Counted from the stretch's first letter, positions 7,563 to 52,261 are shown. The stretch: DNA of 64,000 nt from Mycobacteriales bacterium (GCA_035545635.1 DASZXY010000013.1:184207-248206); one strand, 5' to 3'. Notes: generated from the sequence alone by a model not told the origin. Made by a program: numbers and translations.

Positions 7563-8399
7563 ATGAGCGACGTACCCAGCATCCAGTTGAACAACGGCCG
7601 CCCGATCCCCCAGCTCGGATTCGGGGTGTTTCTCGTGCCGCCGGAGGAGACCGTGGCCGCGGTCACCGAGGCGTTGCGCGTCGGGTATCGCCACATCGAC
7701 ACCGCGGAGATGTACGGCAACGAGAAGGAAGTCGGTCAGGCGATTGCAGAGTCCGGTCTGCACCGCGACGACGTCTACATCACGAGCAAGCTCAACAACA
7801 GCTTCCACCTGCCCGACGACGCGCGCCGGGCCTTCGACGACACGCTCGCCGCACTCGGCATCGACCAGATCGACCTGTTCCTCATCCACTGGCCGCTGCC
7901 GACCCGGTACGGCGGCGACTTCATCTCGACGTGGAAGACGCTCGAGGAGTTCTACCGCGACGGACGCGCGCGCTCGATCGGCGTGTCGAACTTTCACGCG
8001 AATCATTTGAATCGGCTGTTCGCGGAGACCGAGATCGTTCCGGCGGTCAACCAGATCGAAGTCCATCCATATCTGGTGCAGGACGAGCTGCGGGCGTTCT
8101 GCGCCGACCACCAGATCGCGGTGGAGGCGTGGTCGCCGCTCGGGCGCGGCGCGGTGCTCGACGACCCGACGATTCGCGCGATCGCGAACCGCGTCGGCAA
8201 GACCACCGCACAGGTCGTGTTGCGGTGGGCGATCGAGCGCGGCGACATCATCTTCCCGAAGTCGACGCACCCCGAGCGGATGATCGAGAACTTCGACCTC
8301 TTCGACTTCACTCTCAACCCGGACGACGTCGCAGCGATCTCAGCGCTCAACCGCAACGAACGGGTCGGTCCCGACCCTGAGACGTTTGACCGCGTCTAG
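7563..8399 (+). CDS. Aldo/keto reductase (2,5-diketo-D-gluconate reductase-like)
   Basis: AKR motifs GFGVF...AEMYGNE...IHWP. A complete 278-aa AKR. Confidence 0.9.
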   Translation: MSDVPSIQLNNGRPIPQLGFGVFLVPPEETVAAVTEALRVGYRHIDTAEMYGNEKEVGQAIAESGLHRDDVYITSKLNNSFHLPDDARRAFDDTLAALGIDQIDLFLIHWPLPTRYGGDFISTWKTLEEFYRDGRARSIGVSNFHANHLNRLFAETEIVPAVNQIEVHPYLVQDELRAFCADHQIAVEAWSPLGRGAVLDDPTIRAIANRVGKTTAQVVLRWAIERGDIIFPKSTHPERMIENFDLFDFTLNPDDVAAISALNRNERVGPDPETFDRV

Positions 8400-8404
8400 C
8401 TCAG

Positions 8405-10063
8405 ATGTCGGGGGAAACGTTCGCCGACCTGCTGCTGCGGCGAGAGCACGACAAAGGCACCGCGTTGTGGTGCGAGGACGTCACGTGGTCGTGGGAGTGG
8501 CTGGTCTCGGAGTCCTACGAGCGTGCGCACCTGATGCTCGAGCGAAGGGACCCCGAACGACCGCACGTCGGCGTCCTGCTCGAGAACTCCCCGGAGTACG
8601 TCGCATGGATCTACGGCGCTGCGCTCGCGCGAATGACAGTGGTCGGCATCAACCCGACTCGTCGAGGCGCCGCGCTGCGTGACGACATCCGTCACACCGA
8701 CTGCGGGCTGATCGTCACCGACAGCGAGCGTTTGCCGCTGCTCGCCGATCTCGATCTCGGGATCGCCAGCGAGCGAACTGTGATCGTCGATGACCCGGAC
8801 TACGAGTACGACAGGAGCAGCGCGTGGGCAGGCGAGCTGCCGACCCCGCACCCGGAGGACCGGCTGCTGCTGCTGTTCACGTCTGGTTCGACCGGGGCGC
8901 CGAAAGCGGTCGTGTGCACCACCGGGCGGCTTGCTGCGATCGCTACCGGTGCCACGCAGAGCATCGGGATCAAAGGCGACGACGTGCTGTATCAGTCGAT
9001 GCCGATGTTCCACGGCAACGCGATCATGGCCAATCTCGCGCCCGCCGTCGCCCTCGGAGCACCGGTTGCCCTGCGTCGCCGGTTCTCCGCGTCGCAGTTC
9101 CTCAGCGACGTCCGGAAATACGACGCGACGTACTTCAACTACGTCGGTCGGTCCCTTGCCTACGTTCTGGCGACGCCCGAGCAACCCGATGACGGGCTCA
9201 ACTCGTTGCGGCTCGGTTTCGGCACCGAGGCCTCGCAGCGTGACCGCACCGAGTTCGAGCGTCGCTTCGGCTGTGCGCTGACCGAGTCGTACGGCTCAAG
9301 TGAAGGGGTCATCTCGACGTACCGGCCGCCCGGGACCCCGCCGAACTCGGTCGGCATCCCGCGACCCCGCCCCGGCTCGGATGTCGCAGTCGTGAACCCG
9401 GACACGAGCGAAGAATGCCCCACGGCGGATCTCGACGAAGACGGTCGCCTGATGAACGCCGCCGAGGCGATCGGCGAGATCGTCGACCGCGGTGGCGCAC
9501 CGGGATTCGAGGGCTACTACCGCAACGAGGAGGCGATGGCCTCGCGGCTGCGCGACGGCTGGTACTGGTCCGGCGATCTTGCCTACCGGGACGTCGAGGG
9601 CTACCTGTACTTCGCGGGTCGCAGCAACGACTGGCTGCGCGTCGACTCCGAGAACTTCGCGACGGGTCCCGTCGAGGCGATCCTGTTCCGGCACCCGGAC
9701 GTGATGATGGCCGCCGTCTACGCCACACCGGACCCGCGCACCGGCGACGAGGTCATGTGCGCGCTGGAGCTCAACGACGGTGCCGAGTTCGACGCCGACG
9801 GGTTCGGCAACTTCCTGAATGCCCAGCCGGATCTCGGAACCAAGTGGGCACCGCGATTTGTGCGAATCGTCGACGCGATGCCCCTCACCGCCACCAACAA
9901 GGTCAACAAAGCGCCACTACGGGCAGAGGGCTGGACGACCGGCGACGTGTATTGGCGGCCGTCCGCAGAGCTCAGATACCGGGCCTTCACCGTGGCGGAG
10001 CGCACAGCCCATCGCCAGGCATTCGCACTGCACGAACGCTCCCACCTGCTTCCAGCAATGTGA
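8405..10063 (+). CDS. fadD17: Acyl-CoA synthetase (AMP-binding), FadD17-like
   Basis: AMP-binding motif LLFTSGSTGAPKAV, plus RRFSASQFL, GFEGYY and SGDLAYRD. Strong similarity to FadD17 across the whole length. Confidence 0.85.
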   Translation: MSGETFADLLLRREHDKGTALWCEDVTWSWEWLVSESYERAHLMLERRDPERPHVGVLLENSPEYVAWIYGAALARMTVVGINPTRRGAALRDDIRHTDCGLIVTDSERLPLLADLDLGIASERTVIVDDPDYEYDRSSAWAGELPTPHPEDRLLLLFTSGSTGAPKAVVCTTGRLAAIATGATQSIGIKGDDVLYQSMPMFHGNAIMANLAPAVALGAPVALRRRFSASQFLSDVRKYDATYFNYVGRSLAYVLATPEQPDDGLNSLRLGFGTEASQRDRTEFERRFGCALTESYGSSEGVISTYRPPGTPPNSVGIPRPRPGSDVAVVNPDTSEECPTADLDEDGRLMNAAEAIGEIVDRGGAPGFEGYYRNEEAMASRLRDGWYWSGDLAYRDVEGYLYFAGRSNDWLRVDSENFATGPVEAILFRHPDVMMAAVYATPDPRTGDEVMCALELNDGAEFDADGFGNFLNAQPDLGTKWAPRFVRIVDAMPLTATNKVNKAPLRAEGWTTGDVYWRPSAELRYRAFTVAERTAHRQAFALHERSHLLPAM

Positions 10064-10075
10064 CATTGCTGGGAG

Positions 10076-11065
10076 CTAACGGCCGCGGAGCGGGAGGCCG
10101 GCTTTTCGGTAGACGTCGTCGATCACCCGCATGGTGCGGATCGCATCCTCGGGCGCTGTCAACACCGGGCCGCCCTCGCGGACGGCGGCGATGAACGCCT
10201 TCAGCTGGTAGTCGTACGTCGCCTCCCCACGGATCCGCTCTGTCGTCTTTCGGCCGTCGACGTTCAGGGTGAACCGGTTGTAGTGCTGTGGCGCGATGAA
10301 GTTCAGCACCTTCATCGTGCCCCGGGTACCGGAGACGCTGACCGAGAACTGAAGCAGCTTGCTCGACCACATCGACGTCGTCGTGCTGCCGGTCGAGCCG
10401 TCTGCGAACGAGTACTTCACCGACATCGCACGGTCGATGTCCGGCGTATGCAGCAACGCCTTTGCCGACTCGACGGTCGGCTCGCTGGTGCCGAGCAGCC
10501 GCAGCACGTGCACCGCGTAGCAGCAGTCCATCGACGCGCCGCCGCCGAGCGGATACGAGTAGCGGATGTCGGAGAACTTCGGCAGCGGGAAGCACATCGC
10601 GACATGGACGTGTTGGACATCGCCGAGCTGTCCGCCGTGCACCACGGTCCGCATCCGTTCCGCGAGCGGGTGATAGCGGTAGTGGTAGGCCTCCATCACG
10701 ACCAGACCCGACTTCTTCGCCGCGTCGGCAACGACCTGCGCCTCGGCCTCGTTCGAGGTGAAGGGCTTCTCGCACAGCACGTGCTTGCCCGCCTCGAGCG
10801 CTTTGACCGTCCACTCGGCGTGCAGCGCATTCGGTAGCGGGTTGTAGATCGCCTCTAGGGAGTCGTCGGCGAGCAGATCGTCGTACGACGCATGAACCGT
10901 CTCGATGCCGTGCTTCTTCGCGTGCGCCGCAGCGCGCCGCGGGTCACGCGCCGCAACCGCAGCCACGACAGCGCCCGGCACGCGCCTCGCCGGGCGCGCG
11001 AGCGCCATCGGCGTTATCCGTGCCGCGCCGAGCACACCGATTCGAAGGTCTGTCATGTCCCCCAC
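10076..11065 (-). CDS. Gfo/Idh/MocA-family NAD(P)-dependent oxidoreductase
   Basis: N-terminal Rossmann LRIGVLGAARI, C-terminal GFOR domain. Confidence 0.85.
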   Translation of the reverse strand: MGDMTDLRIGVLGAARITPMALARPARRVPGAVVAAVAARDPRRAAAHAKKHGIETVHASYDDLLADDSLEAIYNPLPNALHAEWTVKALEAGKHVLCEKPFTSNEAEAQVVADAAKKSGLVVMEAYHYRYHPLAERMRTVVHGGQLGDVQHVHVAMCFPLPKFSDIRYSYPLGGGASMDCCYAVHVLRLLGTSEPTVESAKALLHTPDIDRAMSVKYSFADGSTGSTTTSMWSSKLLQFSVSVSGTRGTMKVLNFIAPQHYNRFTLNVDGRKTTERIRGEATYDYQLKAFIAAVREGGPVLTAPEDAIRTMRVIDDVYRKAGLPLRGR

Positions 11066-11895
11066 ACCGCCTTGACCTGCTCCACGTGCGCTGCCGCCTG
11101 CGCGCGTCCCGCCAGCGCCGCCGGTCGCGCGGTCGCGGGATCCAGCGGGTTCAACCCGATCGCCTCCATCGAGGCCTCATTGGCGATGATCGTGACCACG
11201 GACGCCGTCGTGCGCACGAGTTCCTCGGCAAGGTCGACGTCAGCGGCCGGGAGCACCGACATCAGGGTGGGACTGATCACGATCACCGGGTCGCAACCGG
11301 CTGCGAGGTCGAGGTTGATCGTCGAGCGCATCCCACCGTCGATGTAGCGGCTGTCACCGATGGTGACCGGCGGCCAGATTCCCGGAACGGCGCAGCTCGC
11401 AGCCACCGCATCGACCAGCTCGACGCCGTCGGCGTTGGTGAAGGTTCGCGGCTCCCCGCTGTTCGCGTCGATCGCGATGATCCGAAGGTCGCGGTCCGGC
11501 CAGTTGCGGTTGGGAAGCCGTCGCTCGATCACCGCACGACGTACCGGCTCGTCGACGGTCTTCGCGCGCAACGAGTACTCCCCCAGCTTCCGATATGTCG
11601 GACGACCGGGTTTCGCGCCGGTGAGCGCCGCACCGAACTCCCGCATCATCACTTGCGGGTCGAACTCCGCGGCGATCTCGCTGACCAGCAGGTCCGACGA
11701 AAGCTGCCGCGCGTAGAGGTCGTTGAGGGGCGTCCCGCTGAGCACCTGCGCCGCAACCGCCGACCCTGCTGAGGTGCCGACGACCCGGTCCGCGGTCGTG
11801 AGATCGAGGCCTGCGTCGTACAAGCCCTTGAGCACGCCGAGCTCCCAAGCGATCCCGGCGACACCTCCGCCGCCCAGAACCAGAGCTCTTCTCAC
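11053..11895 (-). CDS. Patatin-like phospholipase
   Basis: Oxyanion GGGGVAG and nucleophile GTSAG motifs. I take the start at the GTG at 11895, which forms a GTGA overlap with the upstream LLM stop. The track ORF up to 12276 would read through the whole upstream gene in another frame. Confidence 0.8.
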   Translation of the reverse strand: MRRALVLGGGGVAGIAWELGVLKGLYDAGLDLTTADRVVGTSAGSAVAAQVLSGTPLNDLYARQLSSDLLVSEIAAEFDPQVMMREFGAALTGAKPGRPTYRKLGEYSLRAKTVDEPVRRAVIERRLPNRNWPDRDLRIIAIDANSGEPRTFTNADGVELVDAVAASCAVPGIWPPVTIGDSRYIDGGMRSTINLDLAAGCDPVIVISPTLMSVLPAADVDLAEELVRTTASVVTIIANEASMEAIGLNPLDPATARPAALAGRAQAAAHVEQVKAVWGT

Positions 11896-12713
11896 GCCGA
11901 AACCAATCCAGCCCACTCGCGCAGCGTCGGCAGCGCATCGGTGTGCGGCGGCAGGATCAGGATGCAGCGCTCGAGCCCGATCTCCGCGTAGTGGCCGAGC
12001 ACGGCCGCGTCGGGACGTACGGCGTGCAACGTGACCGCCGGCTCCGGCTTTCCGACCTCCGCGGCGTAGTCGCGAAGCTCGGTAAGCCGCTCGCCGATCT
12101 TTCGCTTCGACGGCATCGGCATCCAGCTCGTGCCGTACTCCACCGCGTGGCGCATCGAGAGCTTGCTGCTGCCGCCGACCAGGACCGGCATCGGCCTCTG
12201 CACCGGTTTCGGCCACTGCCAGGACGGCGACACCTTCGCGTACTGCCCGTCGTAGGACGCGACGTCGTTCTCCCACAGCGACTGCATCAGCTTCACCCGG
12301 TCGCGAAGGACGTCCCAGCGGTCGGCGTAGTCGACGCCGTGGTCAGCCATCTCCTCGGCGTTCCACCCGGCTCCGACGCCGAAAAGGAAGCGTCCGCCGG
12401 AGATCAGATCGAGCGACGCGACCTCCTTCGCGCACACGATCGGATCACGCTCGATCGGCAAGCAGATGCCGGTGCCGAGCTTCAACCGCTCGGTGACGGC
12501 CGCGGCAGCTGCGAGGGTCACGAACGGGTCGAGCGTGTGTGCGTACTCCTCTGGTAGCTCGCCGCCGTTCGGGTACGGCGTCGCACGCGACACCGGGATG
12601 TGGGTGTGCTCGGCAACCCAGAGGCTCTCGAAGCCGGCGTCCTCGGCAGCCCGCGCGACATCGCGGATGTCGTTGGTGAGGTCCGTCGCAAACAGCGAGA
12701 TGCCGAGATGCAA
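11892..12713 (-). CDS. LLM-class F420-dependent oxidoreductase
   Basis: Luciferase-like fold, MHLGISLFATD..., 273 aa. Confidence 0.85.
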   Translation of the reverse strand: MHLGISLFATDLTNDIRDVARAAEDAGFESLWVAEHTHIPVSRATPYPNGGELPEEYAHTLDPFVTLAAAAAVTERLKLGTGICLPIERDPIVCAKEVASLDLISGGRFLFGVGAGWNAEEMADHGVDYADRWDVLRDRVKLMQSLWENDVASYDGQYAKVSPSWQWPKPVQRPMPVLVGGSSKLSMRHAVEYGTSWMPMPSKRKIGERLTELRDYAAEVGKPEPAVTLHAVRPDAAVLGHYAEIGLERCILILPPHTDALPTLREWAGLVSA

Positions 12714-12741
12714 GATGCCGTCCTCAGTCGAGCGTGATGGC

Positions 12742-13827
12742 TCAGTCGAACGTGATGACTTGGCGGATCACATCGCCCGCCTGCATAGCGACGAACGCAT
12801 CGTTGACCTCGTCGAGGGTGATGCGCTTCGTGATCATGCCTTCCAGGTCGAGCTGTCCCGCACGCCAGAGGTCGAGCAGCCGTGGGAAGTCGCGACGGAT
12901 GTTGGCCGAGCCGTAGTAGGAGCTACGGATCGTCTTCTCGCCGTAGAACAGCTCGAACGCACTGAAGGACACCATGTCGTCGGCCGGTCCGACGCCGACG
13001 ATGACGGTCGTCCCGCCGCGTCGCGTCGCGTCGTACGCAGCGCGGATCGTCTGAGAACGGCCGACGACCTCGAAGGCGTAGTCGAAGCCGGCGCCGCCAG
13101 TGAGCTCCATGCTGAGAGCCGGCAGATCGCCGGGGGTGACCGCGTGCGTCGCCCCGAACTGCTTCGCCCACTCGAGCTTGTGCGGAACCATGTCAACCGC
13201 GACGATCTTGGCCGCGCCGCAGATCTTCGCTCCCTGGATCGCGCTGATTCCGACGCCGCCGCAACCGATCACCAGGACCGACGAACCAGGCTCGACCTTC
13301 GCCGCGTTCATGACGGCACCGACGCCTGTCATCACGCCGCAACCGATCAGCGACGCGAGGTCGAACGGTACGTCCTTGCCGATCTTGATCGCTGCCGCCT
13401 CCGGTACGACGAGCTCCTCGGCAAAGGTGCCCGCGCCGGCCATCCCGAACAGCGGGGTCTCGTCAGCGGCGGCGAAGCGGGGCTCGCCGAACGCCTCCGC
13501 CACCAGCTTCATGCAGAGCTGAGGCTTGCCGTTCGTGCAGTCCGCACACTGGCCACACTGCGGTGACCAGCAGATGACGACGTGGTCGCCCGGCTTCAGC
13601 GTGCTGACCCCGGGTCCGACCTCGACGACCTCGCCAGCGCCTTCGTGGCCGAGCACGGCGGGCATCGCCACCGGGATCGTCCCGGTCATAGCGGACAGAT
13701 CCGAGTGGCAGACGCCAGTGGCGCGGATCTTCACTCGCACCTTGCCGTCGGTGACAGCGGTCGCCACGACGTTGTCGCGGACCTCGAGGGTGGTGCTGCC
13801 GATCTCAGTGAGGACAGCAGCCTTCAC
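12742..13827 (-). CDS. Zn-dependent alcohol dehydrogenase (MDR family)
   Basis: GVCHSDL zinc site and GxGxxG Rossmann motif. GTG start at 13827, making a GTGA overlap with the ferredoxin stop. An ATG at 13866 is an alternative. Confidence 0.85.
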   Translation of the reverse strand: MKAAVLTEIGSTTLEVRDNVVATAVTDGKVRVKIRATGVCHSDLSAMTGTIPVAMPAVLGHEGAGEVVEVGPGVSTLKPGDHVVICWSPQCGQCADCTNGKPQLCMKLVAEAFGEPRFAAADETPLFGMAGAGTFAEELVVPEAAAIKIGKDVPFDLASLIGCGVMTGVGAVMNAAKVEPGSSVLVIGCGGVGISAIQGAKICGAAKIVAVDMVPHKLEWAKQFGATHAVTPGDLPALSMELTGGAGFDYAFEVVGRSQTIRAAYDATRRGGTTVIVGVGPADDMVSFSAFELFYGEKTIRSSYYGSANIRRDFPRLLDLWRAGQLDLEGMITKRITLDEVNDAFVAMQAGDVIRQVITFD

Positions 13828-14120: not shown

Positions 14121-14951
14121 ATGGTGCGCATGGAGCCGGTCGAGGCCGAGGCCGACTGGATGCTCCGGCTCGACGTCGCGGACGGCATCGCCACCCTGAC
14201 GTTGGACCACCCGGAGAAGCTCAACGCCTGGTCCTGGGAGGCCACCCGCCAGCTCGGCAAGCGGGCCGACCAGATCCGGTTCGACGACTCGGTACGGGTC
14301 GTCGTCCTCCGAGCCGAGGGCCGAGCCTTTTGCGCCGGCGTCGACCTCGGGATGCCCGAGGACCGGATCACCGGGCGATCAGCGGCCGAGAAGGCACGCA
14401 ACTTCTATGAGGGCGTGCGCTGGGTGCACGAGCGGTTCCACGCCTTCTCCGACCTGCCACAGCCGATCGTCGCCGCGGTGCACGGCTACTGCCTCGGGTT
14501 CGGCTTCGAGCTCGCGCTCATGGCAGACATCCGGGTCGCCTCGGACGACGCGGTCTTCGCGCTGCCCGAAGCGCAGATCGGCGTCTCGATCGACGCTGGC
14601 GGCGACCTCCGGCTCGCGCGCGACGCCGGTGCCGGCTGGGCGAAGCTGCTTGCGCTGACCGGGCGCCGGATCGACGCGGCGACGGCGGAGCGGATCGGCG
14701 TCGTCCAGACCGTCGTGACCCGAGCCGAGCTCGACGAGACCGCGCTCGGGATCGCCCGCGAGATTCGAGACAACGCGCCGCTCGCCGTACAAAGCATCAA
14801 GCGCACGATCAACTCCTTCGCCGACAACGGTCTGGCCGATGCGATGCGATTCGAGGCGATGAGCGCGTCGGTCGAGTTCGTCTCGGAGGACATGCCGAAG
14901 GGATACGCCGCCAAGGCCAACAAGGTGACCCCCGACTTCGAGGGGAAATAA
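14121..14951 (+). CDS. Enoyl-CoA hydratase/isomerase family protein
   Basis: Crotonase fold (LDHPEKLNAW, AFCAGVDL). ATG at 14121. Confidence 0.85.
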   Translation: MVRMEPVEAEADWMLRLDVADGIATLTLDHPEKLNAWSWEATRQLGKRADQIRFDDSVRVVVLRAEGRAFCAGVDLGMPEDRITGRSAAEKARNFYEGVRWVHERFHAFSDLPQPIVAAVHGYCLGFGFELALMADIRVASDDAVFALPEAQIGVSIDAGGDLRLARDAGAGWAKLLALTGRRIDAATAERIGVVQTVVTRAELDETALGIAREIRDNAPLAVQSIKRTINSFADNGLADAMRFEAMSASVEFVSEDMPKGYAAKANKVTPDFEGK

Positions 14952-14956
14952 GCGGC

Positions 14957-15829
14957 GTGGCGACCCCAGCTGCCCGACCGGGCGTTCCGCACCCTGCCGC
15001 GCCTCCCGGGGCGATGTTGCCGACGGGCACGTACGACGGGCAGGTCGCTCTGGTCACCGGCGGCGGCACCGGCTTGGGCAAGGCCATCGCGGTGGAGTTC
15101 GGGCGGCTCGGCGCGGCGGTCGCGGTCGCGAGCCGCAGCGAGGAGCACCGGGTCGCGGGCGTGGCCGCGATCGAGGCGGTCGGCGGTACGTCGGTCGGGG
15201 TCGAGCTCGACGTCCGTGAGCCCGAGTCTGTGGCGGCGGCCTTCGATGCGATCGAGGCCGCGTTCGGCACCGTCACCGTGCTCGTGAACAACGCGGCCGC
15301 GAACTTCCCGGTGGCTGCGGCCGACCTCTCCCCCAACGGCTGGCGTGCGGTGGAACGGATCGTGCTGGACGGCACCTTCTTTTGCTCCAAAGAGCTGCAC
15401 CGTCGGCTGGTCGAGACCGGGAAGCCCGGCTCGATCATCAACATCGTGTCGACGGCGGCCGAGAGCGGCGGGCCGGGAATGGCGCACTCGGCGGCGGCGA
15501 AGGCCGGCGTCGTGTCTCTGACCAAGACCCTCGCGGTGGAGTGGGCACCCGACGGGGTCCGGGTCAACGCGATCGCCCCAGGCCTGTTCCCCCACGACGA
15601 CATGCCCGAGGCGATCCGCGCGGTTCGTGACGAATCGGTCGATGCGACCCGCCAGCCCGCGGGACGCGCGGGTGAGCCGAGAGAGCTCGGGTGGGCGGCG
15701 ACGTACCTCTGCTCCCCGTACGCTTCCTTCATCACCGGTCACGTGCTGGTGGTCGACGGTGGAAACTGGCTGCGTCGCGACTTCGCGATGCCGCCCTTCA
15801 CTCCGATCAGGGAGCAGCTCAACCGATGA
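14957..15829 (+). CDS. SDR-family oxidoreductase
   Basis: TGGGTGLGKAIA Rossmann motif and NNAA motif. GTG start. Confidence 0.85.
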   Translation: MATPAARPGVPHPAAPPGAMLPTGTYDGQVALVTGGGTGLGKAIAVEFGRLGAAVAVASRSEEHRVAGVAAIEAVGGTSVGVELDVREPESVAAAFDAIEAAFGTVTVLVNNAAANFPVAAADLSPNGWRAVERIVLDGTFFCSKELHRRLVETGKPGSIINIVSTAAESGGPGMAHSAAAKAGVVSLTKTLAVEWAPDGVRVNAIAPGLFPHDDMPEAIRAVRDESVDATRQPAGRAGEPRELGWAATYLCSPYASFITGHVLVVDGGNWLRRDFAMPPFTPIREQLNR

Positions 15830-43868: not shown

Positions 43869-46064
43869 TTGCCCTGGTCGGGTGCCCTCGCAGTGCCGCT
43901 GGCCCCCTCCGCTCACGCCGGCCGGCCGCGGCAGCTCCGCATCGAGGTGCTCTCGACCCGGGCCGACCTGGTGTCGGGGCAGGTCGCCGTCGTGGCGGTC
44001 GATCTCCCCGCGGGCGTGAAGCCGTCGTCGGTCCGGGTGCGCCTCGGTCACCGCGACATCACACGGGAGTTCGCCGTACGCCCGAACCACCGGTTCGCCG
44101 CACTCGTCCACGGGCTGAACACCGGACGCAACGTCGTCGTCGCGACCGCCCGCGGCGCCCGCGGCGCGCGGCTGACGATCACGGACCATCCGCTGGGCGG
44201 ACCCGTCTTCGCCGGGCCACAGCTCCCCGCCTGGCAGTGCGAGGCAGGCGCAGTCGACGCGAAGTGCGACAAGCCCGCGGCGTTCAGCTATCTCTACCGC
44301 TCCTCGGACCCGACGAAGGCGGGGCTTCAGCCGTACAACCTCAACCATCCGGCGTCGGACGTCGCGATGACGACTACGGACACGGGTGTCACCGTCCCGT
44401 TCATCGTGCGCAAGGAGATCGACTACCAGGACCGCGACCAGGTCATCTACATGACGCTGTTCCAGCCCGGGAAGCGCTGGAGTCGCTGGTCGCCGCAACC
44501 GCAGTTCGCCCACAAGCTGCTGATCACGCACGGTGGCGGTTGCGGTGCCTCCCACGGCTCGGGCAACGCGCCGACTGATGACTTCAGCGGCACGATCCCG
44601 ACGGTGCCCGGAGTCACGCAGAGCTACATCACCGCTCTCGGCAAGGGCTTCGGCGTGATGTCGACCGCGCTCGACAACAACGGGCACAACTGCAACGGCG
44701 TGCTCCAGGCCGAGTCGCTGGTCATGGCGAAAGAGCACTTCATCGACCAGTACGGCGACGTCCGCTACACGATCGGCACCGGCTGCTCAGGTGGCTCGAT
44801 CGCACAACAGCAGGTCGCCAATTCCTACCCCGGCGGCGTCTACAACGGCCTCATCGTCACGTGCGCCTACCCCGACGACTTCTCGACAGCGGCGGAGTTC
44901 GTCGACTACCACCTGTTGCGCCTCTACTTCGAGGATCCGTCGAAGTGGGGTGCCGGCATCGCATGGACACCCTTGCAATGGTCGTTGGTCGAAGGCCGCC
45001 CCGACCCCGTCAACGCGATCGTCGCTGACGAGGCGTTCCTCAAGAGCGCCATCAACCCAGGCGGCGACTGCGCGGGCAAGCGCACCTACAACGCGAAGAC
45101 CAATCCGAAGGGCGTGCGGTGCTCGGTGATCGATGCCGCGATCAACGTCCTCGGTCCACGGCCGAAGCAGGACTGGACCAGACAGGAGAAGGCCGCCGGC
45201 CATGGGTTCGCGGGGATCCCGCTCGGCAACGTCGGCGTCATGTACGGCCTCAGCGCCCTCGAGGATGGCCTGATCACGGCCGACCAGTTCATCGATCTGA
45301 ACGCCAAGATCGGCGGGCTGAACATCGATGGCGGCTGGCGCCACGCGCGCATCCCCGGCGATCGCAGATCGCTCCGCGCCGCCTACCGCTCGGGCCTCAT
45401 CAACGAGGCCAACAACATGGGCAATGTCGCGATCATCGACGCCGCGGGACCGGATCCAGGTGTCGCGCACGACTACGTCCACACGTGGTGGATGCGCGAC
45501 CGCATCGAGCGCGCGCTGGGCGGGCTCGGCAACCACGTGCTCTGGTACGGCCCGGTGCCGCTGGTCGGCGACGTCAACTGGATGAACGTGGCGCTGAACC
45601 GGATGGACAGCTGGCTCGCGGACATCGCCGGCGACCACTCCTCACGGTCCGTAGCGCAGAAGGTTCTTGCCGACCGGCCGGCCAATGTGCACGACCGTTG
45701 TGAGTACGCACCCGACGAGACTTCACAGCTCGACACCGCGCCGACCGACGGCGTCTGCCTGCCGCCCATCACCCAGACGCGCTACCAGACGCCGCGGATC
45801 GTCGCGGGCAGCGACGAGGCCAGCGACATCGTCGCGTGCTCGCTCAAGCCGTTGCTTCGCTACCAGTACCCCAACGGGCTGTTCACCGATGCCCAGTGGC
45901 AGAAGCTGCAAGCCATCTTCCCGCACGGTGTGTGCAACTGGTCGGCACGCGGGATCGGGCAGCAAGACACGATCCCGTGGCAGACCTATCAGGATGCGAA
46001 GGGGCATGTCATCTACGGCGGCCGGCCGCTCGGCCCGGCGCCGGTGTCCGCCCCGATCGACTAG
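43869..46064 (+). CDS. Secreted large alpha/beta-hydrolase, tannase/feruloyl-esterase-like (DUF6351-like)
   Basis: 731 aa with a GCSGGS nucleophile motif and many Cys pairs. See the finding on the split signal peptide at the 5' end. Confidence 0.65.
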   Translation: MPWSGALAVPLAPSAHAGRPRQLRIEVLSTRADLVSGQVAVVAVDLPAGVKPSSVRVRLGHRDITREFAVRPNHRFAALVHGLNTGRNVVVATARGARGARLTITDHPLGGPVFAGPQLPAWQCEAGAVDAKCDKPAAFSYLYRSSDPTKAGLQPYNLNHPASDVAMTTTDTGVTVPFIVRKEIDYQDRDQVIYMTLFQPGKRWSRWSPQPQFAHKLLITHGGGCGASHGSGNAPTDDFSGTIPTVPGVTQSYITALGKGFGVMSTALDNNGHNCNGVLQAESLVMAKEHFIDQYGDVRYTIGTGCSGGSIAQQQVANSYPGGVYNGLIVTCAYPDDFSTAAEFVDYHLLRLYFEDPSKWGAGIAWTPLQWSLVEGRPDPVNAIVADEAFLKSAINPGGDCAGKRTYNAKTNPKGVRCSVIDAAINVLGPRPKQDWTRQEKAAGHGFAGIPLGNVGVMYGLSALEDGLITADQFIDLNAKIGGLNIDGGWRHARIPGDRRSLRAAYRSGLINEANNMGNVAIIDAAGPDPGVAHDYVHTWWMRDRIERALGGLGNHVLWYGPVPLVGDVNWMNVALNRMDSWLADIAGDHSSRSVAQKVLADRPANVHDRCEYAPDETSQLDTAPTDGVCLPPITQTRYQTPRIVAGSDEASDIVACSLKPLLRYQYPNGLFTDAQWQKLQAIFPHGVCNWSARGIGQQDTIPWQTYQDAKGHVIYGGRPLGPAPVSAPID

Positions 46065-47827
46065 ACGCCGAGCAGCTTCCAGCTCAGCAACACCGCGGTG
46101 GACGCGGCGGTCAGTAACGTCGCCACCGCGGCTGAACCGCCGCTCCGCCAGGTCACCACCGCGAGCGCGCCAGAACACGTGGCATGCCCATCAGAAAGCT
46201 TCGCGTTGGCGATCACATGGCGCACGATCACCGCGCTGGTAGCCAGCAGGTACGTGGCCGACTGCACCAACAGCAGGATCGTCAGGCCCATCGTCCATTG
46301 CGGGTGCGCGGCGACCGCGATCACCACAGCCGGCGCCAAAGCAAGGACCAGCAGCGGTGAGAGCAGCTTCACGGACAGCGGTCGAATGTCGGTCAGCCCC
46401 TTGGGTGTGACCCGGAACGGCTTCGGCATCGGCTTGCGGCCGGCCCACATCCCTTGGAAGAACCCCCACGTCGTCCATGGCCAGCGAACCAGCTGGAACA
46501 GCACCAGGTCCGTCGACCACAGCTTGGCCTGCACCGGGCGCATCACGCCACACCGACGCAGCCACGCCAGAGTGCCCATCAAGAACATCGACGGCACCCA
46601 GAGGCGAAGGTAGAACTCCAGAAAGCTGGTGTTGCCCCAGGCTGTCGCGGTCAGAACACCGATCGCCGGCAGGCTGACCGCGGCGAGGCAGATCAGTCCC
46701 TGAACGAGATAGAAGAACAGCGCGAAGCCCATGCGTGCGCGTGCCTTGGCAGGCACGGTGCGGAACTTCCGCGGCGCCCACTTCGTGAGGATCGTGCCGA
46801 GGCTCCGCGACCACTGCAGCTCCTGCGTGATCATGTCGTCGAAGGTCTCCGGTCCGTCGCCGTGAGCCTCTGCATCGATGGCGAAGGCGCCCGCCCAGCC
46901 CGCCGACTGCAGCCACAACGTGGTCGCGTAGTCCTCTGCGAGCTCAGGTCCAAGACCTCCTACATCGCGCAATGCCGCCGTACGAACCGCGTAGTGAGAC
47001 CCGATGCAAAGCGGCGCCCAGCCGCCATTCGAGCCCGCCTGCACAGCTCCGTGCAGCGATGCCTCCCGGTGCAGCCTGCCTTTGACCGTCCAGCCCTTGT
47101 GCTCGTTCGCGTCGCAGACACTCGGCGCCGCGACATAGCCGACAGCAGGATCAGCAAACGGTCGAACCATCTCGGTGAGATAGCTCGGCGCCGGCACATG
47201 ATCGGCGTCCAGTTGCGCGACGACGTCGTAGCGCGTGTAGCCGTACTTGTCGTAGAAGTAGGCGAGGTTGCCTTCCTTGCTCTTGGTACGTCGCGGCCAG
47301 ACCGGCTGGTGGTAGTCCGCAATCCCGGCCCGCGTCGAGATGTGGACGCCGTTGAGCCGGCACCACTCGAGGGCTTCTTCGCTCGGCTGCTCGTCAGCCA
47401 GCCAGACGTCATACGCGTAAGGCAGGTCCTGCGTGAGCATCGCGCGGAGGGTCTGGACCACCATCGCCCACGGCTCGGAGGGTGCCTTCGTCACCACGAT
47501 CGCCACCCGAAGATCCGGCAACGGCAACCGCGGATTCGGGCGCTTCATCCGGCAGGCGAAGAACAGAAAGTACGCACCGAGCAGGAACAACCACGCCAGG
47601 CCGACGGTGCCGAGGGATCGGCCATAGCCCCACGGGCCTCGCGCGGGCGCAAGCCACCACAACCAGAACATGGCGGCTCCGCCGGCCCATGCCGTCACCA
47701 ACAGGCGAAGAACGACCTCCTGGTGGACGCTGAGAATGGGCACCAGGTATCGCGCGCGGCGATGTCTCCCCCTCTGAACGCGAGTGAGCGGTAGACGAGC
47801 GGTCGTCGCCGGCTCCGCAAAGATCAC
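46061..47827 (-). CDS. Polytopic family-2 glycosyltransferase (cellulose-synthase/NodC-like processive synthase), copy 1
   Basis: Two N-terminal TM helices, a cytoplasmic GT-A domain (DAD, DADH, GPELAEDY, QELQWSRS, which is QxxRW-like) and 4-5 C-terminal TM helices. Confidence 0.85.
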   Translation of the reverse strand: MIFAEPATTARLPLTRVQRGRHRRARYLVPILSVHQEVVLRLLVTAWAGGAAMFWLWWLAPARGPWGYGRSLGTVGLAWLFLLGAYFLFFACRMKRPNPRLPLPDLRVAIVVTKAPSEPWAMVVQTLRAMLTQDLPYAYDVWLADEQPSEEALEWCRLNGVHISTRAGIADYHQPVWPRRTKSKEGNLAYFYDKYGYTRYDVVAQLDADHVPAPSYLTEMVRPFADPAVGYVAAPSVCDANEHKGWTVKGRLHREASLHGAVQAGSNGGWAPLCIGSHYAVRTAALRDVGGLGPELAEDYATTLWLQSAGWAGAFAIDAEAHGDGPETFDDMITQELQWSRSLGTILTKWAPRKFRTVPAKARARMGFALFFYLVQGLICLAAVSLPAIGVLTATAWGNTSFLEFYLRLWVPSMFLMGTLAWLRRCGVMRPVQAKLWSTDLVLFQLVRWPWTTWGFFQGMWAGRKPMPKPFRVTPKGLTDIRPLSVKLLSPLLVLALAPAVVIAVAAHPQWTMGLTILLLVQSATYLLATSAVIVRHVIANAKLSDGHATCSGALAVVTWRSGGSAAVATLLTAASTAVLLSWKLLGV

Positions 47828-47865
47828 GGCATACCCGGCGGGTGTCGTGATGAATGTCGAGGTCG

Positions 47866-48078
47866 TCAGGACGAGTCACCGTCCGACACGCGCGCGATCA
47901 CCCCGAGCATCAGAATTCCAGTGATCAGAAGCACCAGACCGAGCGCGACCAGCTCCATCAGGTGGCTGGCGCCCGTGTAGGGCAGCGCCTTGATGGCGGA
48001 AGCGCCCTTCACTCCCGAACCTGTGCCGACCAGAGCGCCGACAACGGCGGCACCACCAGTACCGGCTGAAACGCTCAT
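47866..48078 (-). CDS. 70-aa small membrane peptide with an LPYTG motif, copy 1
   Basis: MSVSAGTGGAAVVGALVGTGSGVKGASAIKALPYTGASHLMELVALGLVLLITGILMLGVIARVSDGDSS. ATG at 48078 with an AAGGGAAAG RBS. 38 bp upstream of, and co-oriented with, GT2 copy 1. A paralog lies at 51925..52137. Confidence 0.55.
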   Translation of the reverse strand: MSVSAGTGGAAVVGALVGTGSGVKGASAIKALPYTGASHLMELVALGLVLLITGILMLGVIARVSDGDSS

Positions 48079-48308
48079 GACTGACTTTCCCTTTCGCAAC
48101 TCTCGACGTGTCCAGGCTGCGTGCGAGGGTCAGATGCGACTAGGGCCCTTCGTCACAGCGGGCTCGTCGTGGTGACTAGTCAGCACCGGGCGGATGATCA
48201 CTTCTCGCTATTGCTCGTCAGCTCACGCGGCTGCAACGCTCCCTATCGGCACTTCGTCCGAATTCTTCGGATGTCCACCGGCTTGGTCGGAGACCTGAGG
48301 GGGTCCGC

Positions 48309-50060
48309 GTGGCGCGCCGTTGGTTGTTGGCAGCGACAGCGGCGCTGTTCGCACTCCAGCTGCCGACGCCGGCTAGCGCATCCGCACCCCCGCCCGGGGT
48401 CGCGACGATCGTCACCGCCTCGATGCATCCGAGCACCGTCAAGGCGGGCGGATCCACCACCGTCTTCGCGAACGTCAGCGGTGCCTTCAACCGCAAGGTT
48501 CGGCTGCAGGTCAGCCGCGATGGCACCTGGCAGACCCTGCTCAAGGGTCGGCTGACGAAGAAGTCGTCGTCGTACGCATTTCGGCTTCACGACCTGCCCG
48601 TCGGCGCCTACACCCTCCGGGTCTGGGTGCCGATCGACCCCGGCTACGCCTTCAGCCAGTCACTCGAGCTGAGAGTCGAGTCCGTGCTCCCATCCACCAA
48701 CGCCGTGACGGACGGCGCATGGACAGGGACGCAGATTCCGTTGCCGAGGGACGCCGACGTCGATTCGAAGCCCTACGTCGGCCCGACCGCATGCACGACG
48801 ACCGGCGTCTGCATCGCGACGGCCAACTACGTGACGAGGTCCGGCGCGTCCGCAACTTCCATTGACGCGACGATTGGTGGGGCGTGGTTCCCGACCGAGA
48901 TCCCACGCATGCACCTCGAGGGCGCCGCATGTACGGACGTCGGCTGTGTGGTCGTCGGCGACAGCTCTGCCACAGCGGGCGCGACAACGCCGTACGCCGA
49001 AGTGCTCAACAACGGGACCTGGACAGGTCACGAGCTCCCCCTTCCTCCCGACGGCGTGCCGAGCATCTGGACCGTTCTGAGCCGGGTCGCCTGCCAACCG
49101 GGCGGGACGTGCATCGCAACCGGCGGGTACTACGACAAGAACGACGTGCAGCTTCCGCTCATCGAAACGTTGAGCCTCGGCGGGTGGGCGGCTAACGCGA
49201 CTGCTGCACCCCTGCCAGACGACGCGGGTGAGGAGCCCGGCAATCGAGAGTGGCGAGGTGGCAAAGGTCCGGGGCTGAGCGGTGGGGTCGCGTGCCCGAC
49301 CAATGGCTACTGCGTCGCAGTCGGCTACTACCACGACACGGCGGGGTCCTACCAAGGGCTGATCGAGACGCTCTCCGATGGCAAGTGGACGGCGGCGAGG
49401 GCGCCGCTTCCACCGATTGCCGGCAACCCGACGCCACGGGACTCCTACGAAGATGCCGACCCCATCTACTACGGACTCGCCTGCTACGCGGCTGAACACT
49501 GCGCCGCAGCCGGCACCGACGAAGTTGCCGGTGGGCAAGGAATGGTCCTCACCCTCGACGGAGGATCATGGGCAGCTGAGACCGTGTACCCGAATCAGGC
49601 GTTGCCGTCAGTTGGCGGCCTGGGAGGGGTGACGTGCAGCCCTGACGGGACCTGCCTGGCGGGCGGTAGCGCCTATTGGTCGGACGGCAGCATGGACGGA
49701 ATCATCGACTCCTACGGCAAGGGCGCGTGGACCGTCGGTAAGGTGGCAGCCCCATCCGACGTGTCCCCCAAGGCCCGAGGTGTCGCTGGACTCGGCGTGG
49801 TCGCGTGCACCGTCGTCGACACCTGCGTCGCGGCGGGCAGCTACCGGGACGTCAACCTCAACTCGTCAGGGGTCCTCGCGACCCGCGTGCTCGGGACCTG
49901 GACGGCGCTCAAGGCTCCGGTGCCACTCGGCGCCGCACTGAACCCGAACACCGCGTTCGTCTCCGCCAGCTGCGGATTGACGCTGTGTGTCGCGGATGGC
50001 ATCTACACCGATCACTTGGGCAACGTGCAAGGTCTGCTCGAGACGTTCGCCGCCGGCTGA
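48309..50060 (+). CDS. Secreted protein built of eight ~43-aa Cys-pair repeats
   Basis: Signal peptide MARRWLLAATAALFALQLPTPASA. Repeats of the form [VL]ACxxxGxCxAxGxYxD...GL[IL]ETxSxGxWTAxxAPLP. No known domain. Confidence 0.7.
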   Translation: MARRWLLAATAALFALQLPTPASASAPPPGVATIVTASMHPSTVKAGGSTTVFANVSGAFNRKVRLQVSRDGTWQTLLKGRLTKKSSSYAFRLHDLPVGAYTLRVWVPIDPGYAFSQSLELRVESVLPSTNAVTDGAWTGTQIPLPRDADVDSKPYVGPTACTTTGVCIATANYVTRSGASATSIDATIGGAWFPTEIPRMHLEGAACTDVGCVVVGDSSATAGATTPYAEVLNNGTWTGHELPLPPDGVPSIWTVLSRVACQPGGTCIATGGYYDKNDVQLPLIETLSLGGWAANATAAPLPDDAGEEPGNREWRGGKGPGLSGGVACPTNGYCVAVGYYHDTAGSYQGLIETLSDGKWTAARAPLPPIAGNPTPRDSYEDADPIYYGLACYAAEHCAAAGTDEVAGGQGMVLTLDGGSWAAETVYPNQALPSVGGLGGVTCSPDGTCLAGGSAYWSDGSMDGIIDSYGKGAWTVGKVAAPSDVSPKARGVAGLGVVACTVVDTCVAAGSYRDVNLNSSGVLATRVLGTWTALKAPVPLGAALNPNTAFVSASCGLTLCVADGIYTDHLGNVQGLLETFAAG

Positions 50061-50114
50061 CCCAACGCTGCGTCGTTCGCCGGGCAACCTGCGAGCCGTT
50101 GCCGCGATCACCGC

Positions 50115-51914
50115 TCAGAAGGCGCCTAGCAACTTCCCGCTCAACAGCGACGCGGCGCACAGAACAGTCGCCAGCGTTGCGGCTACCGCAGAGCCTCCGG
50201 CTTCCCACGTCACCAAGGTAGTCGTAGCGGCTTCGTCCGGATGCTGGCGTCTTCGATTCGCGTTCGCGGCTACGTGACGCACGATCACCGCACAGGACGC
50301 GAGGAGATAGGTGAGCGCCTGCGCGAGCAAGAGGATCGTCAGGCCTATGGTCCGGTCGGGATGAGGGGCGATCGCAATCACTACTACGGGTGCGAAGCAA
50401 AGAACCAGCAGCGGCGAGAAGAACTTCAGCGACAACGGCCGGATGTCCGTCAGGCCTTTTGGCGTGACCCGAAACGGCTTCGGGGCGGACCTGCGACCGG
50501 CCCACATTCCCTGGAAGAAGCCCCAGGTGGTCCAAGGCCAGCGCACGAGCTGAAAGAGCACGAGATCGGTCGACCACAGCTTGGCCCGGACTGGACGCAG
50601 CACGCCGCAGTGCCGAAGCCACGCCAAGGTGCTCATGAGCAACAGCGAAGGCAGCGAGAGGCGGATGTAGAACTCGAGGATGCTCGTGTTGACCCATGTG
50701 ACGCCGGTGAGCACGCCAAGGGACGGCAGGCTGATCGCCGCGAGACACACCAAACCTTGGACCAGGTAGAAGAAGAGCGCAAAGCTCATCCGCGCCCGCG
50801 CCCTGCGAGGGACCGTGCGGAACTTCGACGGCGCCCATCTGGTGAAGATCGTTCCCAGGCTGCGCGACCACTGCAGCTCCTGGGTGATCATGTCGTCGAA
50901 GGTCTCGGGCCCATCGCCGTGAGCTTCGGCGTCGATGGCGAAGGCACCCGACCATCCCGCGGACTGCAGCCACAACGTTGTCGTGTAGTCCTCGGCGAGC
51001 TCCGGCCCGAGCCCGCCCACCTCACGCAACGCCGACGTACGAACCGCGTAGTGAGATCCGATGCAGAGTGGCGCCCAACCCCCGTTCGAACCAGCCTGCA
51101 CCACGCCGTGCAACGACGCCTCGCGATGCAGCCGGCCTCTCACGGTCCAGCCCTTGTCCTCGTTCGCATCGCACACGCTGGGCGCTGCGACGTAGCCGAT
51201 GCCCGCGTCCGCAAACGGCCGCACCATCTCCATGAGATAGCCAGGTGCGGGCACATGGTCCGCGTCCAGCTGGGCCACCACGTCGTAGGAGTCGTAGCCG
51301 TGACGGTCGTAGAAGTACGCGAGGTTGCCCTCCTTGCTCTTCGTACGTCGGGGCCAGACCGGCTGGTGGTATTCAGGAGCCCGCGCCCGCGTGGAGACGC
51401 GGACACCGTGGCGTCGGCACCACTGTCGCGCTGTCCGGGTGGGCTGCTCATCGGCCAGCCAGACGTCGTAGGCGAAGGGCACCTCCTGCGCGACCATGCC
51501 TCGCAAGGTCTCGCGAACCATCGGCCACGGCTCCGAGGGCGCCTTCGTCACGACCATTGCGACGCGTAGCGGGGGAACTGTCAGTTGAGGATTCGGCCGC
51601 TTGATGCGACAGGCGAAGAAGACGAAGTACGCACCGAGCAAAAAGATCCAACCTAGACCTGCGGTCGAGGCGACGCGACCGACACTCCACCGCCCGCGAG
51701 CCGGCGCGAACCACCACAGCCAGAACAGGGCGCCGCTGCTGACCCACGCCAGCACCAACAGGCGGAGGACGGCCTCCTGATGGACGGTGAGAACAGGTAC
51801 GAGGTGTTGCGGGCGCTCACCGCGCTTCGACCCACGAACGACGGCACGGTCCGGCCTCGCATGACCGCGGATGCCCGCAGCGGAGAAGCCGGATCGGACG
51901 GATCCGATCATCAT
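50115..51914 (-). CDS. Polytopic family-2 glycosyltransferase, copy 2
   Basis: Paralog of 46061..47827 with the same motifs. I take the start at MMIGSV to avoid overlapping the small upstream gene. Confidence 0.85.
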   Translation of the reverse strand: MMIGSVRSGFSAAGIRGHARPDRAVVRGSKRGERPQHLVPVLTVHQEAVLRLLVLAWVSSGALFWLWWFAPARGRWSVGRVASTAGLGWIFLLGAYFVFFACRIKRPNPQLTVPPLRVAMVVTKAPSEPWPMVRETLRGMVAQEVPFAYDVWLADEQPTRTARQWCRRHGVRVSTRARAPEYHQPVWPRRTKSKEGNLAYFYDRHGYDSYDVVAQLDADHVPAPGYLMEMVRPFADAGIGYVAAPSVCDANEDKGWTVRGRLHREASLHGVVQAGSNGGWAPLCIGSHYAVRTSALREVGGLGPELAEDYTTTLWLQSAGWSGAFAIDAEAHGDGPETFDDMITQELQWSRSLGTIFTRWAPSKFRTVPRRARARMSFALFFYLVQGLVCLAAISLPSLGVLTGVTWVNTSILEFYIRLSLPSLLLMSTLAWLRHCGVLRPVRAKLWSTDLVLFQLVRWPWTTWGFFQGMWAGRRSAPKPFRVTPKGLTDIRPLSLKFFSPLLVLCFAPVVVIAIAPHPDRTIGLTILLLAQALTYLLASCAVIVRHVAANANRRRQHPDEAATTTLVTWEAGGSAVAATLATVLCAASLLSGKLLGAF

Positions 51915-51924
51915 CGAGCCGTCG

Positions 51925-52137
51925 TTAGTGCGAGTCGCCGTCTGACAGACGCCGGAAGAAGCCGACCATGAGGACACCGGCGATCAGCAGCACGAAGCCG
52001 ATGGCAACCAGAACCATCAAGTGGCTCGCACCCGTGTAAGGCAGGGACTTCAGCGCGGGCGCACCCTTGGCACCGGCTGCTGCGCCGACCACCGCGCCGG
52101 CGACACTGGCGCCTCCGGTGCCGGCTGAAACGCTCAT
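51925..52137 (-). CDS. 70-aa small membrane peptide with an LPYTG motif, copy 2
   Basis: MSVSAGTGGASVAGAVVGAAAGAKGAPALKSLPYTGASHLMVLVAIGFVLLIAGVLMVGFFRRLSDGDSH. GAAGG RBS. Directly upstream of GT2 copy 2. Confidence 0.55.
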   Translation of the reverse strand: MSVSAGTGGASVAGAVVGAAAGAKGAPALKSLPYTGASHLMVLVAIGFVLLIAGVLMVGFFRRLSDGDSH

Positions 52138-52261
52138 TGCTGGGCCTTCGCTCTCTTGTCAGTCTGAGTAGTTGTTACGCATAACTACCCACTTCGACCT
52201 CGATCGCACATGGCGGCGCCAGCCGTGTCGCCTCCTACACAGCTATGGAAGGGGGCGGTTG

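Follow-up and report, generated by a model that had tools for sequence, protein, structure and literature searches.

A duplicated gene pair joining an LPXTG-like mini-peptide to a BcsA-fold glycosyltransferase in uncultured Actinomycetota

A 64,000-nucleotide (nt) stretch of DNA from a Mycobacteriales bacterium (GCA_035545635.1, DASZXY010000013.1:184207-248206), analysed at its full length and referred to here as the window, contains two copies of a two-gene cassette. Each copy consists of a gene for a 70-amino-acid (aa) peptide, which has the anatomy of an LPXTG-type sorting signal preceded by a short glycine-rich tail, and a gene for a membrane-embedded, processive family 2 glycosyltransferase (GT2) of the BcsA fold. 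The cassette was duplicated as a unit, long ago, with both small open reading frames (ORFs) kept as coding sequence, and the linkage of peptide and synthase is retained throughout one clade of GT2s. The peptide is regarded here, tentatively, as a partner of the synthase that a sortase would attach to the cell wall.

A two-gene cassette duplicated as a unit

All four cassette ORFs lie on the minus strand, and an ORF check returned the same coordinates and orientation that an initial annotation of this DNA had given. Peptide 2 (51925..52137) is followed by the 599-aa GT2-2 (50115..51914), and peptide 1 (47866..48078), its paralog, is followed by the 588-aa GT2-1 (46061..47827), the paralog of GT2-2. 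Peptide 2 reads from an MSVSAG start through a Gly/Ala-rich tail, LPYTG, a transmembrane (TM) helix and a pair of arginines (RR) to an acidic end. The features that the initial annotation had listed for the pair (MSVSAGTGGA, LPYTGASHLM, a TM helix, an arginine and DGDS) are indeed common to both 70-aa ORFs.

The window has a G+C content of ~67%. The GT2-2 reading frame stays open as far as 51977, past the called start at 51914, and the 599-aa start agrees with the protein called by NCBI (P0007). For peptide 2, two Logan contigs carry an identical called gene at a distance of 10 nt before the GT2 gene, and GAAGG, resembling a ribosome-binding site (RBS), lies ~9 nt before its start. The 5′ untranslated regions of the two cassettes had been described as duplicated. 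What they share is reduced to a purine-rich, RBS-like stretch ~9 nt before the ATG, and the regions further upstream do not align. A longer form of peptide 1, beginning at an upstream TTG and carrying a signal-peptide-like n-region (MRKGKSV...), was rejected because conservation in all homologs starts at the ATG and the upstream DNA does not align.

The tandem duplication that had been proposed from the first inspection is borne out by paralogous peptides (71% identity) and GT2s (75% identity) with matching synonymous divergence. By the Nei-Gojobori method, the peptides have a ratio of nonsynonymous to synonymous substitutions (dN/dS) of 0.195 at a dS of 0.99, and the GT2s one of 0.173 at a dS of 1.03. 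Third codon positions account for 34 of the 60 differences between the two peptide genes, and none of the other five frames is as well conserved as the annotated one. In a neighbor-joining (NJ) tree, the two GT2s of the window are sisters. The low dN/dS, the equal dS and the conservation of the frame indicate that the small ORFs are selected coding sequence and that they were duplicated together with their GT2 genes.

The peptide family and its synthase clade

A word-based search with one window peptide returned only itself and its paralog, under the NCBI name ‘LPXTG cell wall anchor domain-containing protein’. A HMMER search with a profile of the two paralogs found 19 small proteins (78–133 aa) among 1.84 billion representative proteins, a 20-sequence profile then yielded 27 peptide clusters (at 90% identity), and a scan of fetched locus DNA with a family hidden Markov model (HMM) added further members. 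Against this HMM, peptide 2 scores an E-value of 1.3e-27 and peptide 1 one of 7e-24. The family alignment comprises 50 members. Conservation of the small ORF in relatives, which the initial annotation had posed as a test, is established by both the profile searches and the locus scans. Judged from these sequences, the peptides form a real but rare family of ~50, all from uncultured Actinomycetota. The carriers are labelled Mycobacteriales, Frankiales, Jatrophihabitans, Acidimicrobiales or simply Actinomycetota. No dedicated NCBIfam or Pfam family was found for the peptide, and any database name given to it is either ‘LPXTG cell wall anchor domain-containing protein’ or ‘hypothetical protein’. 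The peptide accounts for just 27 recorded clusters, compared to ~90 GT2 clusters of the same clade; the conserved small gene is often overlooked in annotation or named only generically.

Conservation within the family is concentrated in a few positions. All 50 peptides share the L, T and G of the motif and a Gly in the middle of the helix, and there is very little variation at the Met start, at two glycines of the tail and at one Arg. The N-terminus follows the pattern M-[TS]-V-[SQA]-A-G-x-G-G, with T or S at position 2 in 47/50 members. LPYTG itself, whose conservation in orthologs had been posed as a test of the initial annotation, is kept in all 50 peptides in the form L-[PA]-x-T-G, in which the Pro and Tyr vary: the second position is P in 34 peptides and A in the other 16, and x is unconstrained (F, H, Y, M, R, S, K, V, A or L). 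RR follows exactly 25 residues after the TG in 43/50 peptides, and small residues recur along the helix, with A or G at +15, the invariant G at +22 and G at +27. The N-terminal tail, of 27–63 residues, is composed to 79% of Gly, Ala, Val, Thr and Ser and is almost without charged or aromatic residues; the first 22 positions hold just two charged residues among the 1100 examined in the 50 peptides.

These properties bear on membrane topology. A TM helix is predicted only for the C-terminal segment (Kyte-Doolittle 2.86 in the best 19-residue window; summed Hessa dG of -3.6) and not for the N-terminal tail (Kyte-Doolittle 1.34; summed Hessa dG of +4.8). By the positive-inside rule, the peptide would span the membrane once, with the N-terminus outside and the C-terminus inside the cell.

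The partner of the peptide was described at the outset as a cellulose-synthase-like, processive family 2 glycosyltransferase, and structural modelling agrees. Both GT2s match Glyco_trans_2_3, Glyco_tranf_2_3 and Glyco_transf_21 (Pfam PF13632, PF13641 and PF13506), and in a phmmer search of Protein Data Bank (PDB) sequences BcsA chains were the only relatives (E 4e-9 for GT2-1). An AlphaFold2 model of GT2-2 built with 72 homologs (pLDDT 91.5, pTM 0.89) has two N-terminal TM helices, a GT-A domain, interface helices and 5–6 further helices. When this model was compared to the PDB with Foldseek, the top match was BcsA chain 9b8v_E (E 2e-19, TMq 0.63), followed by 4p00_A and 4hg6_A; as a group, the BcsA proteins of E. 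coli and Rhodobacter came first (E 2e-19 to 8e-15, TMq ~0.6), and hyaluronan synthases and plant CesAs came next. The GT2 is therefore modelled as a BcsA-fold processive synthase-translocase.

Its catalytic motifs largely agree with this assignment. A DAD motif (D217, D219), an ED motif (E308, D309) and Q345-E-L-Q348-W349 are invariant in the 72 aligned homologs. The DxD and ED motifs had thus been named correctly, whereas the “QxxRW-like” motif is in fact QxxQW followed by S-R: residues 345–351 read Q-E-L-Q-W-S-R, with Gln in place of the Arg of QxxRW, and R351 is nearly invariant. The enzyme should not be filed as a cellulose synthase proper, since its scores against the cellulose synthase models are far below the equivalog cutoffs (51–53 bits for TIGR03030, cutoff 699, and 38–40 bits for NF008558, cutoff 992) and no PilZ domain was matched in the GT2s by Pfam. 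A match to the PgaC_IcaA model is marginal (E 0.037).

Some GT2 homologs are considerably longer (713–946 aa) and carry coiled-coil, GH26 or other extensions. For instance, P0122 (946 aa; 50% identical) includes a fused GH26 domain, P0046, P0048, P0053 and P0090 have coiled-coil-like, Ala/Arg/Glu-rich N-terminal extensions of ~250–400 residues, and P0044 and P0062 have C-terminal extensions of the same kind of ~200 residues. From their sequence, the coiled-coil-like extensions may be related to the cytoskeleton or to polar growth. No natural fusion of peptide and GT2 occurs among the long homologs, and the peptide HMM matched no GT2 ORF.

Linkage of the two genes was followed among relatives of the GT2, which number >3,000 database matches. 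A genome collection, 80 metagenome contigs and exact look-ups supplied 93 loci (L001–L093) for comparison. The peptide gene adjoins the GT2 gene in 16/16 evaluable foreign loci in which the GT2 is >= 57% identical to that of the window, and one further locus, represented without DNA sequence, has a 74-aa gene at the expected place of the peptide. More divergent peptides (LPATG, LPSTG) occur beside GT2s of 54% (L020) and 49% identity (L021/L022). In ~65 loci with GT2s at 44–51% identity, including that of Streptomyces solicamelliae, no peptide was found. Synteny of the small ORF with a GT2 gene, which the initial annotation had posed as a test, is kept by all evaluable relatives within one GT2 clade, and more distant GT2 loci lack the peptide. 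An NJ tree of 89 GT2s places all peptide-linked GT2s in that one clade, and pairwise divergence of the peptides tracks that of their GT2s (r 0.74, Mantel p ~2e-4).

The arrangement of the pair is not fixed. The peptide gene lies upstream of the GT2 gene on the same strand in 14 cases, and it is convergent in four, divergent in one and downstream in one. The loci with the two genes on opposite strands are L008, L013, L014, L020 and L092; in L021 the peptide gene shares the strand of the GT2 gene and lies downstream of it. Since linkage survives four gene orders, the peptide evidently acts in trans, as a protein.

Sorting signal, synthase subunit or primer

The name LPXTG-type sorting signal, which the initial annotation gave to the peptide, is supported in part. 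The pentapeptide motif is followed by a hydrophobic segment and then by basic residues, as in the anatomy of known sorting signals. Both window peptides exceed the cutoff of 15.9 bits of TIGR01167 LPXTG_anchor (23.1 bits for peptide 2 and 16.3 bits for peptide 1), and a window peptide reached 18.4 bits against PF00746, for which the cutoff is 20. In an NCBIfam scan of the 50 peptides, the six families with the most members matched were sortase-anchor or wall-anchor models; at E <= 0.05, NF058582 matched 29/50 peptides and TIGR01167 matched 16/50. At the level of sequence, the conservation pattern, in which L, T and G are fixed, P or A occupies position 2 and x is free, is what a sortase site predicts. 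Sortases of Actinobacteria tolerate P or A at the second position, and the class E enzymes of soil Actinobacteria use LAXTG (PMC5148588).

On the preferred reading, which is advanced tentatively and falls somewhat short of probable, the peptide is an N-out partner of the synthase and a sortase links its tail to peptidoglycan, so that the wall-bound tail can hold or nucleate the emerging glycan. The peptide would be made together with the synthase, usually from a shared transcript with a gap of 10–40 nt between the genes. It would insert into the membrane in a single pass, N-out and C-in, with the uncharged tail of 27–63 residues crossing the membrane without a signal peptide and the RR after the helix remaining in the cytoplasm. 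The L-[PA]-x-T-G motif would then lie on the external side of the membrane, within reach of a sortase that could cut after the Thr and join the tail to peptidoglycan. As the synthase polymerises and exports its glycan, the anchored tail might hold or nucleate the chain leaving the cognate enzyme. Topology, sortase cleavage and tethering are all inferred steps in this scheme.

Several observations weigh against it. Most family members score under the curated cutoffs of the sorting-signal models, and the cytoplasmic tail after the RR, put at 8–31 or 6–29 residues, is longer than in typical sorting signals. Charge and hydropathy analysis found no Sec-type signal peptide, as there is no basic n-region and the tail is weakly hydrophobic; it is in this respect that the peptide departs from the LPXTG type assigned to it, the motif, hydrophobic helix and basic stretch being in agreement. 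To our knowledge, all established sortase substrates have a Sec-type signal peptide. A search for sortase-like ORFs with TLxTC gave only spurious frames in the 64-kb window and in ~0.75 Mb of DNA from the 93 loci. The fetched DNA contains no other sorting-signal proteins either, a result that is uninformative given how little sequence is available per genome. One peptide-bearing locus, L093, includes a conserved crgA-DUF881-trpG-pknB-pbpA-rodA-pstP cell-division cluster (7818-11331) in which DUF881 directly adjoins trpG and trpG directly adjoins pknB, leaving no room for a sortase gene in the crgA-DUF881-trpG-pknB portion. It is at this DUF881/trpG/pknB position that S. coelicolor keeps its class E sortase genes, srtE1 and srtE2. 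Moreover, Mycobacterium species are without sortase (PMC9282373), and for this reason the enzyme cannot be assumed for a metagenome-assembled genome labelled ‘Mycobacteriales’. Finally, the N-terminal motif and the small-residue pattern of the helix would also fit a stable helix-helix partner.

That last point leads to the main alternative, only slightly less likely than the preferred reading, in which the peptide is never cleaved and is instead an obligate subunit whose TM helix packs on the GT2 and completes or activates its channel, the motif being a juxtamembrane contact or helix cap. The 10-nt gap, which points to translational coupling, the one-to-one co-duplication and the retention of the peptide throughout one GT2 clade are all in keeping with a subunit, as are the invariant helix Gly, the small-residue pattern, the 25-residue spacing of TG and RR in 43/50 peptides and the conserved N-terminus. 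BcsA has four TM helices before its GT domain, and the modelled GT2 has only two. The tail anchor of BcsB offers an analogue, as it fits a groove between TM1-3 of BcsA and is indispensable for polymerisation (PMC8892547). The lack of a signal peptide, and of any TLxTC sortase ORF in the window and flanks, also speaks for an uncleaved peptide. A packing motif does not, however, predict a fixed L, T and G with P or A alone at position 2 and a free x, and the six HMM families that match the most members are sortase-anchor or wall-anchor models. GT2s of equal length in sister clades function without the peptide, so the fold does not structurally depend on its helix. Pfam and NCBIfam likewise reveal no sequence similarity to PgaD, IcaD or BcsB. 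The uncleaved-subunit and wall-anchoring readings are not exclusive and are compatible with each other.

Two further explanations can be given less weight. It is unlikely that the peptide primes or carries the glycan covalently, with the chain started on or moved to the conserved N-terminal Thr/Ser of the tail, the tail drawn out together with the polymer and the glycopeptide fixed to the wall by sortase. T or S at position 2 in nearly all members, along with S, Q or A at position 4, would allow this, and the uncharged, non-aromatic tail would suit a narrow glycan channel; the glycosylated, sortase-anchored GspA of Actinomyces oris, with LcpA and SrtA, is a partial precedent (PMC6381275). The composition of the tail is nevertheless explained by translocation of an N-terminal tail without a signal peptide, and BcsA-type synthases are not known to use protein acceptors. 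Far less probable still is a role of the small ORF in cis, as a leader or upstream ORF controlling GT2 translation, or its origin as an annotation artefact of GC-rich DNA. Its usual position directly 5′ of the GT2 gene, with a very short gap, might suggest as much, but the ORF is placed elsewhere in six loci (five on the opposite strand and one downstream), and it is conserved at the amino acid level, with specific invariant residues and the dN/dS of 0.195 given above. No terminator-like site was found between the peptide and GT2 genes, and the cassette region has no Rfam match at E <= 0.1. The trans arrangements and the selection at the protein level contradict a cis-acting element or artefact.

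Neighbouring genes and relation to known systems

Between the two cassettes, on the plus strand (48309..50060), lies a gene for a secreted protein of 583 aa with eight CX4-5C repeats. The protein has a signal peptide, a weak Ig-like match and eight repeats of ~55 aa, and its 16 Cys form 8 CX4-5C pairs, one per repeat, in accordance with the eight Cys-pair repeats first reported. Three Pfam matches were obtained, all below gathering cutoffs, and there was no match in NCBIfam or among PDB sequences; no homolog was found in loci L001–L091. A single-sequence AlphaFold2 model has a pLDDT of 38. The gene sits where related loci have a right-handed beta-helix protein, and its membership in the system is uncertain.

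The initial annotation also named a tannase-like (DUF6351) gene, a gene for a cyclic nucleotide (cNMP)-binding protein and a GGDEF-EAL gene as lying immediately upstream. Their identities were upheld, and their location is in actuality the 3′ side of cassette 1. The DUF6351 gene (plus strand, 43869-46064) and GT2-1 (minus strand) are convergent, and their 3′ ends overlap by 4 nt (46061-46064). None of the three genes neighbours the module in any related locus, and a role of the cyclic di-GMP and cNMP genes as part of the module was rejected on the grounds of this absence.

Conserved neighbours of the GT2 family, with or without the peptide, are of another kind, namely a right-handed beta-helix protein (~420–460 aa) and 1–2 NAD-dependent epimerase/dehydratases. 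Both occur in peptide-bearing loci (L003, L004, L006, L007, L009, L010 and L012; in L010 at 12034-13377 and 8821-9909) and in loci without the peptide (L049, L051, L052 and L056). The beta-helix gene, the epimerase/dehydratase genes and the other accessory genes of relatives are absent from the 64-kb window. In L010, genes for a phage-type integrase and an HTH_17 protein (14260-15734) lie ~2 kb past the beta-helix gene of the module, which, judging by these genes, may be situated next to a mobile element.

Hints on the product of the GT2 come only from the loci and fusions of relatives. Besides the conserved epimerase/dehydratase and beta-helix neighbours, a GH5/Cellulase-family gene directly follows the GT2 gene in the peptide-bearing locus L093 (4777-6186), and the GT2 homolog of Streptomyces has UXS-like and GalE-like genes on its flanks. 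The GH26 fusion and the GH5 neighbour are possible hints of a beta-mannan-like or beta-glucan-like product.

Small membrane partners of processive synthases are known, and the claim that no such pairing with a mini-peptide had been described is accordingly too broad as regards the BcsB tail, PgaD and IcaD. It is the sorting-signal nature of the partner that is new: in NCBIfam, in Pfam and in the literature searched, no partner of a synthase was found that is made up of just a sorting signal and a short glycine-rich tail. One close comparison is BcsA-BcsB, in which the catalytic subunit has the same fold as the GT2 (Foldseek E 2e-19) and the partner is anchored by one C-terminal TM helix, its N-terminal part being extracytoplasmic. 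The TM anchor of BcsB and the short helix that precedes it are indispensable for polymerisation (PMC8892547). The partner described here is, however, only 70–100 aa in length as against ~700 for BcsB; it lacks carbohydrate-binding domains and any similarity to BcsB and has L-[PA]-x-T-G, and its GT2 is without PilZ. In PgaC-PgaD and IcaA-IcaD, as here, a small dedicated membrane protein is encoded beside a processive GT2. PgaD and IcaD are membrane subunits required for activity of the poly-N-acetylglucosamine synthase, and each of them spans the membrane twice and lacks a sorting motif, in contrast to the one TM helix and sorting motif of the peptide. No homology was found between them; the peptides have no significant match in Pfam, and in NCBIfam they match sorting-signal models only, with no PgaD, IcaD or BcsB among them.

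Sortase substrates, including the long chaplins ChpA-C of Streptomyces, resemble the peptide in their motif, hydrophobic helix and basic stretch and in the alternation of P and A. The peptide differs from them in lacking a signal peptide, a folded passenger and a chaplin domain (Pfam and NCBIfam scans gave no chaplin match), its whole passenger being the Gly-rich tail of 27–63 aa. Its gene, too, is tied strictly to that of a synthase and not to one for a sortase. Chaplins are also the building blocks of the amyloid fimbriae anchored by CslA in S. coelicolor. The anchor in that case is the glucan of the cellulose-synthase-like CslA, which attaches the fimbriae to the cell surface (PMC8892547). 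By analogy, cooperation of hydrophobic surface peptides with a GT2 product thus has a precedent in Streptomyces (PMC8892547, PMC5148588).

Two other systems join surface polymers to sorting-signal proteins. In the GspA-LcpA-SrtA system of A. oris, a glycopolymer and a sortase-anchored polypeptide are joined on the cell wall (PMC6381275), although an LCP phosphotransferase there glycosylates a normal secreted LPXTG protein, whereas the peptide has a BcsA-type synthase as its neighbour; no LCP gene was seen in the loci. In PEP-CTERM/exosortase (EpsH) systems, proteins with C-terminal sorting signals are genomically tied to exopolysaccharide loci (PMC1569441), but these systems are Gram-negative, use a PEP motif and another enzyme family and share no homology with the module.

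How Gram-positive bacteria retain synthase-made polysaccharides on their surface is poorly understood. The known routes of polysaccharide attachment involve LCP enzymes and lipid-linked precursors. The module, conserved within a clade of soil Actinomycetota, is a minimal, two-gene candidate for coupling the export of a glycan to wall anchoring. If the peptide proves to be an uncleaved subunit, it would be the smallest known co-subunit of a cellulose-synthase-type enzyme, and if it serves as a primer or carrier, its product would be the first protein-primed, synthase-dependent polysaccharide to be anchored to the wall through a sortase signal.

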